Source: Escherichia coli | GTDB lineage: Bacteria > Pseudomonadota > Gammaproteobacteria > Enterobacterales > Enterobacteriaceae | DNA length: 64,000 bases | Assembly: GCF_045037415.1 (NCBI RefSeq) | Contig: NZ_CP173438.1 | Direction: 5' to 3' (one strand) | In this document: one piece after another, positions 3,001-6,000 of the stretch | Numbering within the stretch: the stretch's first letter is position 1 | Layout of the letters: each line of letters opens with the position of its first letter | Position numbers: made by a program

Positions 3001-6000
3001 ATAAACACTGTGAGTGCGATCAGTGGGCATGAGAACGCAGTAGCAGCAGATTGCGTTGTACCCACAGGGCTATCTCTGATAGCTGGCGTATAACCTGCGT
3101 ATATAAAACGTACCTGCAACACACGTGAACAGAGTGCATTAAGCATCCGTCTGAGCGGTAAACGTATCCGACCTGGTGAGTGACAGTCTGAGAGACCGGT
3201 TAAGTGGTGGCACGGGAGTAATGAGTTTGGGGAGGGTACCAGAATGCCAGGCTGGTGCGGTATGCTGACAGCATCCTGTTAACCGCAGCATAAAGTAATG
3301 AGAGGCTAATGGAAGTTAAAACCACAGCAGTTCCGTCGTTGTTCATCCCGGGAGACGCTGGAAAAAGTGATTTCCCACACGCGTTATAAACTTACCCCTG
3401 CGGAGCTGGAAGCCTTTAACTCTGCCGTTGACAACCGGCTGGCAGAACTGACAATGAACAAACTTTACGATCGCGTGCCGGCTTCCGTCTGGAAATATGT
3501 CACCTGAATCTTGAATCCGCGCTACGATGACTCCGGTGTTATCTGTGCACCGGAAGATCGGGAACATTAAGCAGTATAACGGCAACAAAGAATTCGAAAT
3601 CAAAAGGGAATGGTGTACAGAGGGGCAGGCGTTCAGGCATTACCGGCCTGTATCTTCTGAAGGGGACTCGTATTTGTCGGGGCTGAGTATTCCGCTCGAT
3701 TCGATCACGGATTGGCGGAATACCTGACTGTGATTGATTCAGATACCATTTTGCAGGGAGCCGGTGCGTTACTGTCTGGCACAACAAACGCAGCGGGTCG
3801 CTCTGCCCCGCCGATTCCTGATAATCCCTCCCCTGTAACCTACTGCAACAGTACAAATACACTGACGCCTGAAACGGTAACCAGAATCAGCACCAGCAGT
3901 AACGTCAGTAAACAGAGCAGACGATCGGTCTTCCGGTAATAACCGAAGGGGTCGACAGCGCCACAATACGGGCAACAAACTGTATTATGAGTAATTGCGT
4001 TACCACAGTCCCTGCACTTCTTTTTGCGTATCACGATAGCTCCCTCGCCACGCCTTATCCGTAACCGGTTTTTTACATTAAAAAAAACAACGCCGGGAAT
4101 TCAATCGTCAGTCCGGAGACGACCGTTCGGGTTATCACAGAGTGCCTGAGACAGTGTCCTGCCGGAGGTCACTTCAGGGACTCTGCGTATTTTTTACGAC
4201 GTGGCTATTCCGTATGAACCATACGGAGATTTAACCATGACCTACAAATACAACCCCTTCTGGCAGCAACGTATTCGTGAGACGGTGCGGCACGCACTGA
4301 ATGTTCATCCCCGCCTGACGGCATTGCGGGTTGACCTGCGTTTCCCGGATGTACCGGCAGCAACGGACGCAGCTGTGATATCCCGCTTCATCAATGCCCT
4401 GAAAGCCCGAATCGACGCTTACCAGAAACGTAAGCATCGGGAAGGTAAACGCGTGCATCCCACAACCCTGCATTACGTCTGGGCCCGGGAGTTTGGGGAG
4501 TGCAAAGGTAAAAAACACTATCACCTGATGCTGCTGGTTAACCGGGATACCTGGTGTCGTGCCGGTGATTACCGTGCTCCGGGATCACTGGCCGGGATGA
4601 TTAAACAGGCGTGGTGCAGTGCCCTGGGAGTGGATGTCGGGTGCCATGCCACGCTGGTGCATTTTCCGGCCTGGCCGGCGGTGTGGCTGGAACGCGATGA
4701 TGACACTGGCTTTCAGCAGGTGCTGGAACGTGCTGACTATCTGGCGAAGGAACATACCAAAGCTCACTGCACCGGTGAGCGCAATTTTGGCTGTAGCCGG
4801 AGTTGAGCACGACTGGCGCGCCAATACCCGGCAAACCAAAAGTATGGGTTGTTGTCTGGCGGCAACGATGTATCCACTCGCCCACTGACTGTTTTTTACG
4901 TCAGTGTTCCATTGTGTGACAACCACAGTGCTGTAACAGCAACCAGCCTGCTTTACCCAAACTCCAGTCCAGATTTTAACTGAACCGCCATTCACACCCT
5001 GACCACGCTGCCCGTACCGGGACGGCTGTTGCCTGCGTGTCGTCTGGCGGCTGAGGAATATGACTATGTACGCAAAATCCTTTATCGCTCTTGATGGCAA
5101 CGGACGTCTGACGGGCGCCCGTACTGCACAGGCCGCACCTTATGCTCACTACACCTGCCACTTGTGTGGCAGTGCACTCAGATACCATCCGCAATACGAC
5201 ACTGAACTTCCCTGGTTTGAACACACTGACGACAGGCTGACAGAGCACGGTCAACAGTGCCCTTATGTCAGGCCGGAGCGCAGAGAAATACAGTTGATTA
5301 AACGTCTGCAGCAATTCGTACCGGATGCCTTACCCGTGGTGCGTAAAGCCAGCTGGCACTGCAGACAATGTCACCACGATTATTATGGGGAGCAGTACTG
5401 CACACACTGCCAGACCGGAGGATTCAGTATTCCCCGGACAACTCAGGAGGAAATATGCGAATTCTGAACTGTTATATGGCGAATGACAGCAAAGGCCATT
5501 TTGTTACGGCGAAAGAAGCTGCGAAGCACAACCGACAGGACGTTTTGTGCTGTGTGTCCTGTGGATGCCCGTTAACACTTCAGCGGGGCAATGACGGACA
5601 ACCACCGTGGTTTGAACATGACCAGATGACTGTCGCTGAAAAAATCCTGCTGCGATGTACCTGGCTTGACCCGGCAGAGAAAGAGGCCCGTCGTTTGCAT
5701 CTGCAGGGCATGACGGTTCCGGATTATACGGTGAAGGTGAGAAAGTGGTTTTGTGTGATGTGTGACGAAGATTATGAGGGGGAAAAGTGCTGCCCACGCT
5801 GCGGTACCGGGGTATACAGCAGGGCGTGGGGGCGGCAGGAGGTGCCGTCGGAAGATGCCAGGGCTGATAATCCGTTACAGAGGCTGTAATGGTTGCCTCC
5901 GGAGCAGTTTGCGGTGATGCCTTTCCCGGGAATGGATTGCCAGTGCGGGGACTGTGGAGCTTAATTCCGGTGTTGGTGGCCTTTCCATTGATTTTATGCC

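Follow-up and report, generated by a model that had tools for sequence, protein, structure and literature searches.

Genomic islands such as CP4-57 of K-12 (alpA-yfjI-yfjJ), the SRL PAI, and the Pseudomonas tmRNA islands I23, I44, and I55 share a tyrosine integrase at a tRNA or tmRNA gene, an AlpA protein, and a Gp2/YagK-like gene. The paper on I23/I44/I55 describes IntY, AlpA, a Gp2-like protein, and RadC and leaves a zinc protein unmentioned, and island papers count the Gp2-like gene among the core genes but assign it no role. A recent preprint reports jumbo-phage transduction of the Pseudomonas relatives of these islands. Outside such islands, the competence protein CoiA acts on transformation D-loops. 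Full-text literature searches on the DUF7828, Zn_ribbon_11, YagK/YfjJ, and Gp2 families returned annotation tables only and no functional study. Among small zinc proteins of mobile elements, P2 Ogr and P4 Delta carry Cys4 motifs, and Delta contains the Ogr unit twice in tandem.

Here, we analyzed a 64,000-nucleotide stretch of Escherichia coli DNA (the window). An SRL-PAI/CP4-57-type genomic island lies at leuX in this stretch, and positions 1680–5889 are its conserved core, comprising AlpA, p205, YagK, and a tandem pair of zinc proteins, ZnA and ZnB.

Gene content and conservation of the island core

The genes in and around the core are as follows.

1680–2282, minus strand: p205 gene, 200-aa protein (RefSeq hypothetical protein)
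2378–2584, minus strand: alpA-family gene, excisionase-like HTH regulator (RefSeq HTH regulator; PHROG match)
3358–3507, plus strand: truncated hha/ymoA-family gene, N terminus missing (NCBIfam NF008191; RefSeq)
3840–4037, minus strand: 64/65-aa CxxC...CxxC zinc-ribbon ORF with a C-terminal hydrophobic helix (sequence; RefSeq 65-aa hypothetical protein)
4237–4806, plus strand: yagK/yfjJ-family gene, 189 aa (RefSeq "inovirus Gp2 family protein"; Pfam)
5066–5467, plus strand: ZnA, 133 aa, A-type, first of the pair (RefSeq "putative zinc ribbon protein"; Pfam)
5455–5889, plus strand: ZnB, 144 aa, B-type, second of the pair (RefSeq "zinc-ribbon domain-containing protein"; Pfam)

RefSeq annotation of the module ORFs was read from identical E. 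coli chromosomes. The four ORFs singled out in a preliminary description of this DNA (yagK, the two Cys-rich genes, and the 64-aa ORF) were all present at or near the positions given there, by both sequence and RefSeq. An Rfam search of window positions 1–9000 returned no match.

The ZnA/ZnB pair is present in 3824 of 5426 complete E. coli genomes (∼70%), in up to seven copies per genome. A degenerate DNA pattern scan recovered 54 related loci from other Enterobacterales. A YagK-type gene adjoins the DUF7828 gene (named after a Pfam domain of ZnA and ZnB) on the same strand at every one of the 46 loci with available flank; the remaining 8 end on the YagK side. The same neighbor was found for all 10 DUF7828 genes flanked on each side by 3 kb or more, as well as in metagenomic and plasmid loci. 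The DUF7828 family was not found outside Enterobacterales, no homologue of the module was found among 50,697 phage genomes, and plasmid copies lay only inside island-like segments in the one plasmid context examined. Many YagK-family genes, such as K-12 yfjJ and those of the Pseudomonas islands, have no DUF7828 neighbor, and the zinc proteins are therefore not a universal requirement. The K-12 CP4-44 pseudogenes yoeG, yoeH, and yeeH, considered as module remnants, gave no tblastn match and were rejected.

Two further conserved partners, AlpA itself and p205, had been missed in the preliminary description. AlpA matches a PHROG excisionase/transcriptional regulator (8e-10), is 55–93% identical to AlpA genes adjoining DUF7828 genes elsewhere, and occurs in 41 of the 54 Enterobacterales loci. 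The usual gene order is AlpA>p205>Zn, the zinc genes usually being co-transcribed with AlpA in a unit separate from the antirestriction genes; in the window, alpA is inverted relative to yagK. The p205 protein had no match in Pfam, NCBIfam, PADLOC, or PHROG. In locus L014 and in 17 of the 54 loci, a p205 homologue sits immediately upstream of a DUF7828 gene, making p205 a conserved fourth partner of the module. The 64-aa ORF (PHROG 38187, E 7e-6), previously counted as a member, has no such standing: tblastn across 75 loci found homologues only in L001 and L019, and the ORF is confined to E. coli. The hha/ymoA-family fragment, matched by NF008191 at positions 28–71 of 72, likewise occurs in E. 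coli copies only and lies outside the conserved set.

The module had been described as island cargo; across loci, it is instead conserved backbone bordering variable cargo. ZnB is the last backbone gene before the variable cargo. In many E. coli copies, similarity ends at about base 800 of an 856-base query, corresponding to about window position 5840. Among the cargo are the fec operon in the window island and, in a sister strain, CTX-M-14. Immediately downstream of the zinc genes lies a variable defense hot spot, where neighboring systems include BREX, type I R-M, Dnd, Gabija, PD-Lambda-4, and Shedu, with AbpAB and RnlAB in K-12.

This location raises the question of whether the module, or the zinc pair with YagK, is itself an interference system that nicks or blocks incoming phage, plasmid, or rival-island DNA. 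It directly adjoins the hot spot, a CoiA-domain protein has been reported among new E. coli defense systems (PMC9519451), and islands could compete with one another through their multiple copies and diverged A and B types. However, the module is constant rather than patchy, belonging to a backbone found in most E. coli genomes, whereas the neighboring defense genes vary and match defense models. In PADLOC-DB 2.0, ZnA, YagK, and the 64-aa ORF had no match, and ZnB reached only E 0.063 to PDC-S64. The family's absence from phage genomes and the island-like setting of its plasmid copies also argue against interference, as does the fact that the only effector domain is a Rep-class HUH domain. We consider an interference system quite improbable. 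The nucleic acid-targeting function suggested previously thus survives in one part: island maintenance or replication is its most plausible form, and phage or plasmid interference is disfavored by the PADLOC search, the phage genomes, and the constant distribution.

The zinc protein pair and its HUH neighbor

ZnA and ZnB were proposed to be tandem paralogs, and they are: BLASTP aligned them at 31% identity (E 2e-15), and both carry the same Pfam domains, DUF7828 (PF25165; ZnA 2.5e-31, ZnB 9.3e-31) followed by Zn_ribbon_11 (PF11682, formerly DUF3279; ZnA 8.6e-09, ZnB 1.7e-18). This domain order was matched in all 34 aligned relatives. Eight residues are invariant in these 34 sequences: C33, C36, H55, and C68 in the N-domain and C100, C103, C113, and C116 in the ribbon. 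Judged from this conservation, they would define two predicted metal sites, one CCHC and one C4, probably occupied by zinc. ZnB has, in addition, a disordered tail beyond the two domains common to ZnA. Pfam identified only DUF7828 and zinc ribbons in the two proteins and no catalytic domain, and NCBIfam, PADLOC, and PHROGs gave no family match. Their pI values of 5–9 are near neutral rather than strongly basic. A first AF2 model built on a shallow alignment (pLDDT 65.6) was superseded by a run on 34 diverse sequences.

The two genes overlap by 13 nt, and AGGAGG precedes ZnB. Other E. coli islands and a Klebsiella plasmid copy show an identical overlap. The overlap and Shine–Dalgarno sequence earlier taken to imply co-translation were, thus, both confirmed, and translational coupling is probable. 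The start of the first gene, previously placed at 5060, is more likely 5066 because GAGGA at 5053–5057 lies 8 nt before the ATG at 5066, RefSeq starts the gene there, and homologues open with MYAKSF. The A-type gene precedes the B-type gene in all 12 two-copy loci across genera, and dN/dS values of 0.06–0.19 among island copies indicate purifying selection on both zinc genes. The pair is conserved and falls into no characterized family of unrelated function, both outcomes favoring the preliminary description; that of an uncharacterized module of tandem paralogs is accurate.

The adjacent YagK protein matches Pfam YagK_YfjJ_C (1.1e-47) and REP_ORF2-G2P (4.7e-05); it has no sequence relative in the PDB. 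Ten residues are invariant in seven diverse members: R31, D33, W82, E85, H94, H96, N102, W126, Y168, and K171. The HYHLMLL stretch noted earlier as HUH-like is a genuine motif, H94-Y-H96, followed downstream by the Tyr motif Y168-L-A-K171, with both histidines and the Y-x-x-K invariant in the seven relatives. In Rep proteins, the HUH motif comes first and the catalytic Tyr second, as Chandler et al. reportedly described in 2013. By these motifs, YagK is a predicted single-tyrosine HUH endonuclease of the Rep class. A conjugative relaxase (MOB, HUH type) was rejected as an identity for YagK: it needs the Tyr N-terminal to the His triad, whereas YagK has the HUH motif and then the Tyr.

Moreover, the zinc and YagK-like domains are found in a single chain in Serratia. 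Six Serratia clusters (454–468 aa, 45–52% mutual identity) fuse DUF7828 and Zn_ribbon_11 to a YagK-like domain (hhalign probability 96.6%, E 6e-10). The fused domain has neither the HUH histidines nor the Tyr motif and is predicted to be catalytically dead; a binding or regulatory role would fit it at least as well as a catalytic one.

The fusion also bears on the idea that ZnA and ZnB are establishment or antidefense factors, which would be made early after island entry, like the products of the divergent antirestriction operon, to protect or process incoming island DNA independently of YagK catalysis. The backbone does carry antirestriction, RadC, DUF932, and DUF905 genes, of which the antirestriction, RadC, and DUF932 genes form a divergent operon. 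Conjugative plasmids typically have such genes in their leading regions, and small zinc proteins are common inhibitors of host enzymes. However, the zinc genes belong to the YagK/AlpA unit rather than the antirestriction unit, the YagK-like fusion would be left without explanation, and the family is found only in Enterobacterales, independently of the defense types nearby. An establishment role is, in our judgment, very improbable.

Upstream motifs and a proposed role in island replication

The following elements lie upstream of the core genes.

2675–2683, minus strand: T-tract/TTTACG promoter-like motif, 96 nt upstream of alpA
4190–4198, plus strand: T-tract/TTTACG promoter-like motif, 47 nt upstream of the yagK ATG
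4209–4227: small inverted repeat TCCGTAT-GAACC-ATACGGA, after the yagK-upstream motif
4883–4906, plus strand: hairpin CACTGAC-TGTTTTTTAC-GTCAGTG, holding the third T-tract/TTTACG motif, 174 nt upstream of ZnA
4975–5065, plus strand: ZnA leader of about 90 nt, from comparison of E. coli island copies

The sequence TTTTTTACG occurs four times in the 64 kb, all within 4.1 kb, against 0.67 expected, and a T-tract/TTTACG motif lies ∼93 nt upstream of AlpA in 21 of 41 AlpA genes of other genera. The T-rich loop of the 4883–4906 hairpin (z −2.65) suggested an HUH nick site resembling the CRESS nonanucleotide. We set this aside as the main reading: other genera do not preserve the stem, and alpA and yagK, too, are preceded by the T-tract/TTTACR motif, in promoter-like positions. 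In Mixta, Salmonella, and Enterobacillus, the motif at the hairpin site and the downstream TAGTGTGACAACCAC are kept, and the stem is not. The site is, thus, more likely a promoter than a nick site, and the search for a conserved nick-site hairpin or iterons gave nothing convincing. E. coli island copies with coding regions diverged at dS 0.24–0.45 share an almost unchanged ZnA leader, which showed no excess RNA folding energy (z −0.35).

These shared motifs bring in a regulatory explanation, in which ZnA and ZnB would be island zinc-finger transcription factors, like P2 Ogr/P4 Delta or AlpA co-factors, acting at the T-tract/TTTACG promoters of alpA, yagK, and ZnA and possibly driving or gating cargo read-through; their adjacency to YagK would then reflect a shared operon and not a complex. 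Consistent with this, AlpA genes of other genera keep the motif in their upstream DNA, the zinc genes usually share a transcription unit with AlpA, and the proteins are small, with two zinc sites and no enzymatic domain. The catalytically dead YagK-like domain in the fusions also agrees with it. The largest downstream cargo ORFs share the module's direction in 20 of 24 loci; however, the adjacent cargo lies on the opposite strand in E. coli L018 and in K-12. Searches of Pfam, NCBIfam, and PHROGs returned no Ogr_Delta or DNA-binding regulator match, the fold resembles the appendage of a nuclease (CoiA) rather than known regulators, and fusion to a Rep-like domain would be unusual for a pure transcription factor. 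We regard a regulatory role as a lesser possibility, although one to be taken seriously.

We favor, tentatively and at somewhat less than even confidence, a reading in which ZnA and ZnB bind DNA as partners of a Rep-class HUH nuclease, and this nuclease replicates or processes the island once it is excised. It draws on homology, catalytic motifs, strict synteny, the fusion, the A-then-B order, purifying selection, and fold similarity. ZnA and ZnB, each binding zinc, would probably form a heteromer in a fixed ratio set by translational coupling and would interact with YagK as its DNA-recognition or assembly partners. AlpA-type regulation would switch the island on, after which the complex would bind an island site. 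Nicking by YagK at the bound site would initiate or regulate replication of the excised circle by a rolling-circle-type mechanism, or its single-strand processing. During gut colonization by E. coli Nissle, an integrase gene and a Gp2-family gene gained copy number (bioRxiv 10.1101/364505), which offers circumstantial support for a replication role. Several observations weigh against this reading: the negative result for nick-site hairpins and iterons, the near-neutral charge of the zinc proteins, the many YagK-family genes that have no DUF7828 neighbor, and the loss of the catalytic motifs from the YagK-like domain fused in Serratia.

A bolder extension of the replication reading, which we think unlikely, is that YagK and ZnA/ZnB constitute an undescribed kind of HUH replication or mobilization machine, in which separate CoiA_N-like subunits would set site specificity and the A/B types and Serratia dead-Rep fusions would serve as specificity or incompatibility determinants. 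If true, islands sharing one E. coli genome, in up to seven copies, could tell their own DNA from that of the others, and it would explain how very common islands without capsid or conjugation genes are amplified and handed over to helper phages or plasmids. Islands with this backbone are among the commonest mobile DNA in E. coli and other Enterobacterales, and they carry virulence, iron-uptake, and resistance cargo together with many antiphage systems. A Rep-class HUH nuclease with dedicated zinc-finger partners would offer a testable handle on their replication and movement. Two Pfam domains of unknown function, DUF7828 and Zn_ribbon_11, gain a working context, and the DNA just downstream of the zinc genes is a hot spot that can be mined for defense systems.

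Comparison with known systems

The N-terminal domain of CoiA (CoiA_N, PF25164; related to DUF7830) has the same signature as ZnA and ZnB, CxxC ... aromatic-F-x-H ... C, and sub-threshold Pfam matches to CoiA_N were obtained for 9 of 34 zinc-family members (best 1.3e-3). CoiA_N and the CoiA_N-like finger of ZnA and ZnB are each linked with a DNA nuclease. However, CoiA carries its PD-(D/E)XK nuclease (PF06054) in the same chain, whereas ZnA and ZnB (133–144 aa) have a C4 ribbon instead and no nuclease. Their nuclease, unlike that of CoiA, would be the HUH protein next door or is represented by the dead HUH-like domain fused in Serratia. Furthermore, ZnA and ZnB are Enterobacterales island genes, whereas CoiA belongs to competence.

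The P4 Delta duplication echoes the ZnA/ZnB pair, but ZnA and ZnB differ from Ogr/Delta in lacking any sequence, Pfam, or PHROG relation to them, in Cys spacing, in having two distinct zinc sites, and in the lack of a P2/P4 context. YagK shares the HUH motif and the single Tyr in Y-x-x-K with rolling-circle Reps (inovirus gpII/REP_ORF2-G2P, plasmid RepB, and CRESS-virus Rep). In contrast to these, it has 189 aa with no helicase or oligomerization domain, and its gene belongs to an integrated island, not to a plasmid or phage. To our knowledge, no rolling-circle Rep has a separate dedicated zinc-finger partner of the kind we propose for YagK.

Beyond the integrase, AlpA, and Gp2/YagK-like genes, CP4-57, the SRL PAI, and the Pseudomonas tmRNA islands share with the window island RadC, an antirestriction/DUF932 operon, and defense cargo. 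Unlike the window island, CP4-57 carries YfjI (DUF3987) and no DUF7828 gene. In the SRL PAI (orf38–orf41), the local gene order is the same as in the window.

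Zinc-Protein Genes and Their HUH Neighbor in the leuX Island

All of the open reading frames in the preliminary description are present in the window. On E. coli chromosomes with the identical stretch, RefSeq annotates the following genes.

Annotated genes (RefSeq)
3358-3507, +, Hha/YmoA gene, shortened
3840-4037, -, hypothetical protein, 65 aa
4237-4806, +, 'inovirus Gp2 family protein' (YagK)
5066-5467, +, 'putative zinc ribbon protein' (ZnA)
5455-5889, +, 'zinc-ribbon domain-containing protein' (ZnB)

ZnA and ZnB, initially described as tandem paralogs, are indeed related (31% identity, E 2e-15), and both match Pfam DUF7828 and Zn_ribbon_11. 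The likeliest start of ZnA is 5066, not 5060, given the Shine-Dalgarno spacing, the RefSeq call, and homologues starting MYAKSF. When 1.84 billion representative proteins were searched exhaustively with a profile, only 262 relatives came up at E <= 1e-3. Across 34 diverse aligned members, C33, C36, F53, H55, and C68 are invariant (a CCHC site, motif CxxC...WFEH...C), as are C100, C103, C113, and C116 (a C4 ribbon). Judged from sequence, both are genuine, constrained genes, with dN/dS between E. coli island copies of 0.12-0.19 for ZnA and 0.06-0.07 for ZnB. UniProt gives many of the family's proteins (B7MMF4, A0A6N8N922, and others) the name 'DNA-directed RNA polymerase, beta subunit/140 kD subunit', a propagated annotation error for what is really a 114-173-aa zinc-ribbon protein.

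An AlphaFold2 model of the zinc protein, with the 34-sequence alignment as input, was confident (pLDDT 88.8). The Foldseek matches ranked highest in AFDB50 all belonged to the family itself and all came from Enterobacterales; several are misnamed 'DNA-directed RNA polymerase beta subunit'. The finger had been likened to that of CoiA-type proteins, and this likeness is tentatively supported at the fold level: members show weak matches to Pfam CoiA_N (9/34) and matches to DUF7830 (7/34).

YagK matches Pfam YagK_YfjJ_C (1e-47) and REP_ORF2-G2P (4.7e-5). Its suspected HUH motif held up: H94 and H96 are both among the residues invariant in seven relatives of 19-41% identity, together with Y168 and K171 (YxxK). 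The HUH motif precedes a single tyrosine, an order that marks rolling-circle Rep proteins rather than relaxases. hhalign (99.7%) also places in this family a second, highly divergent subtype with HIHF...YLAK and an RGRPR tail.

The 2.8 kb at 3400-6200 is 100% identical to many complete E. coli chromosomes. The tRNA-Leu(CAA) gene leuX lies at 47745-47829, and an integrase remnant adjoins leuX in the reference strain; the zinc-gene module is therefore inside the leuX island, ∼42 kb from the island's integrase end. The other island arm in the reference strain carries antirestriction, radC, and yeeU/cbtA genes. E. coli AR_0086 (NZ_CP032201) is colinear with the window. Relative to it, a 3.3-kb ISEcp1-CTX-M-14 segment is absent here (window junction 21104-21108) and ∼1.4 kb, probably an IS, is additional (32758-34188), differences that indicate ongoing cargo turnover in the leuX island. 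The hha/ymoA-family gene (3358-3507, +) lacks its N terminus: its match to the Hha model, 72 positions long, covers just 28-71. At the equivalent site of a different E. coli island, L018, the gene is full-length (4266-4478).

Conserved Neighborhood and Variable Downstream DNA

The module, previously taken for island cargo, is instead backbone: the zinc pair occurs in 3824/5426 complete E. coli genomes (median two places per genome, maximum 7; almost all copies chromosomal), and distant metagenomic homologues keep the same set of a YagK-type gene, AlpA, and one or two DUF7828 genes, all co-oriented. The metagenomic loci have a divergent operon (GTPase, DUF932, antirestriction, RadC, and CbeA), with a tyrosine integrase and variable cargo further out. 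On a Klebsiella IncFIB/HI1B megaplasmid the order is Gp2 > AlpA > Zn > Zn > Gp2-type, and the two zinc genes overlap by 13 nt as in the window.

We matched a degenerate DNA pattern of family motifs in one-genome-per-species data and annotated the resulting 54 loci with HMMs built for this analysis. All are from Enterobacterales save two contigs (L054 and L055) of the actinobacterial MAG 'Collinsella sp. Map_57_008'; these carry YagK, AlpA, p205, and zinc genes, an enterobacterial module that very likely reflects bin contamination. The neighborhood proved conserved: a YagK-type gene is present in 46/54 loci, and the remaining 8 end short on that side. For zinc genes with >=3 kb on both flanks, YagK lies within 3 kb on the same strand in 10/10, and AlpA is also near in 9/10. 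A fourth recurrent partner (17/54 Enterobacterales loci) is p205, a 200-aa protein (1680-2282, -) for which Pfam, NCBIfam, PADLOC, and PHROGs all gave no match; its gene accompanies AlpA and in most cases immediately precedes the zinc gene. The 64-aa zinc-ribbon membrane ORF, originally counted as a module member, is confined to E. coli copies, as is the hha gene. In 12/12 loci with two full-length zinc genes, an A-type gene comes first; the gene after it is B-type in 10 and unassigned in 2, never A-type. The duplication is therefore old and its order maintained.

One metagenomic island (L014, 7142-10856) holds a near-duplicated set, AlpA > p205 > Zn > YagK > p205 > Zn > AlpA. L018 retains a YagK 5′ end and promoter remnant (6700-6940) downstream of a different-subtype Gp2 gene, the first zinc gene of L012 (3309-3686) is broken by an internal stop, and ZnA, ZnB, and YagK variants are reassorted among E. 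coli islands; these last cases show mosaicism and decay of the module.

Directly 3′ of the last zinc gene, the DNA varies from island to island: IS66, a phytase-like esterase, and the fec operon in this window; BREX in L018; and type I R-M plus Shedu, an SMC-like ATPase, or SMEK/CTD10 in metagenomic loci. PADLOC matched 6/10 sampled largest downstream ORFs from other genera (BrxC, type I methyltransferase twice, DndC, GajA, and PD-Lambda-4_A). K-12 CP4-57 (L075) has yfjJ followed by abpB/abpA and rnlAB, with no DUF7828 gene. The DNA just past the YagK/AlpA/Zn module is a defense hot spot across Enterobacterales (L023, L033, L038, L039, L065, L073, L012, L018, and L075), with Gabija, type I R-M, Dnd, PD-Lambda-4, BREX, Shedu, AbpAB, and RnlAB; the largest downstream ORFs run in the module's direction in 20/24 loci.

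The module itself has no PADLOC match, no homologue among 50,697 phage genomes, and only 32 matches in 72,556 plasmid records. Defense is thus found beside the module, and no evidence points to the module itself as the source of the phage or plasmid interference first suggested for it; we consider it quite improbable that the module is an interference system. That ZnA and ZnB are establishment or anti-defense factors seems slightly less probable still.

A Shared Promoter-Like Motif

The 64-kb window contains four copies of TTTTTTACG where 0.67 would be expected; all lie within 790-4900, and three of the four copies precede alpA, yagK, and ZnA in sense orientation.

T-tract/TTTACR motif copies (TTTTTTACG counts)
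790-798, +
2675-2683, -
4190-4198, +
4892-4900, +

The sequence downstream of the copy at 790 is alpA-type, yet no obvious gene follows. In other genera, a T-tract plus AC[AG] lies ∼93 nt upstream of 21/41 AlpA genes (background 0.04), followed by a CCGG-containing inverted repeat. This repeat takes the form CCGG...CCGG or CCGGAG...CTCCGG; loci with the AlpA-upstream motif include L021, L034, L035, L044, L048, L056, and L073. The shared motif probably marks a promoter and leader common to these islands, and possibly the AlpA site.

A hairpin (4883-4906, z -2.65) has the copy preceding ZnA in its loop; we considered this hairpin as an HUH nick site and set that aside as the main reading. Mixta, Salmonella, and Enterobacillus keep the motif and the subsequent TAGTGTGACAACCAC but not the stem, which favors promoters of the common type. 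The ∼90 nt before ZnA (4975-5065) are almost invariant among E. coli copies, with a coding-region dS of 0.24-0.45; the RNA folding energy of this leader is not above that of shuffled controls.

Serratia Fusions, Proposed Role, and Known Systems

In six Serratia protein clusters (454-468 aa, 45-52% mutual identity), DUF7828 and Zn_ribbon_11 are joined to a C-terminal domain. By hhalign this domain is a homologue of the YagK core, at 92.9% when a single sequence was compared and 96.6% (E 6e-10) in a profile-profile comparison. Neither the HUH histidines nor the Tyr motif survives in the fused domain, and at one locus an intact YagK gene adjoins. Of all the evidence, this fusion most strongly suggests that the zinc proteins work physically with the YagK-type fold.

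Our best-supported reading, still tentative, is that AlpA-type control would turn the island on and a Rep-class HUH nuclease would then replicate or otherwise process the island's DNA, with ZnA and ZnB as its DNA-binding partners. It draws on the observed motifs, synteny, fusion, fold, and selection. Zinc binding, DNA binding, a complex, nicking, and a replication role are what we infer from them. Copies of an integrase gene and a Gp2-family gene increased in number when E. coli Nissle colonized the mouse gut (bioRxiv 10.1101/364505), which is weak circumstantial evidence for this reading. The reading has three main weaknesses: no cognate origin was found for YagK, many YagK genes stand without a zinc partner, and the fused Rep-like domain is catalytically dead, which suits a binding or a regulatory role equally well. 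That ZnA and ZnB are transcription factors on the shared promoters we regard as somewhat unlikely.

Pfam already lists both domains as uncharacterized families, and RefSeq annotates the genes. In the literature, we found no description of an obligate DUF7828/Zn_ribbon_11 link to YagK-type HUH genes, a conserved A-then-B zinc pair, the Serratia zinc/YagK-like fusion, or a putative fold-level tie between the zinc proteins and CoiA_N. We regard the module as a putative HUH Rep module of a mobile element with a dedicated zinc-finger accessory. In CoiA, the finger is followed by a PD-(D/E)XK nuclease, by which transformation D-loops are resolved (bioRxiv 10.1101/2024.02.06.579203), whereas the ZnA and ZnB chains are without a nuclease domain. 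Islands that combine AlpA with a Gp2-like core gene are already known (bioRxiv 10.1101/2024.08.29.610337), and the Shigella SRL pathogenicity island, with its phytase-like esterase, IS66, orf38 ('no similarity'), orf39 (YfjJ), orf40 (Hha), and orf41 (AlpA/Vis) (PMC6980539), has the same local gene order as the window.
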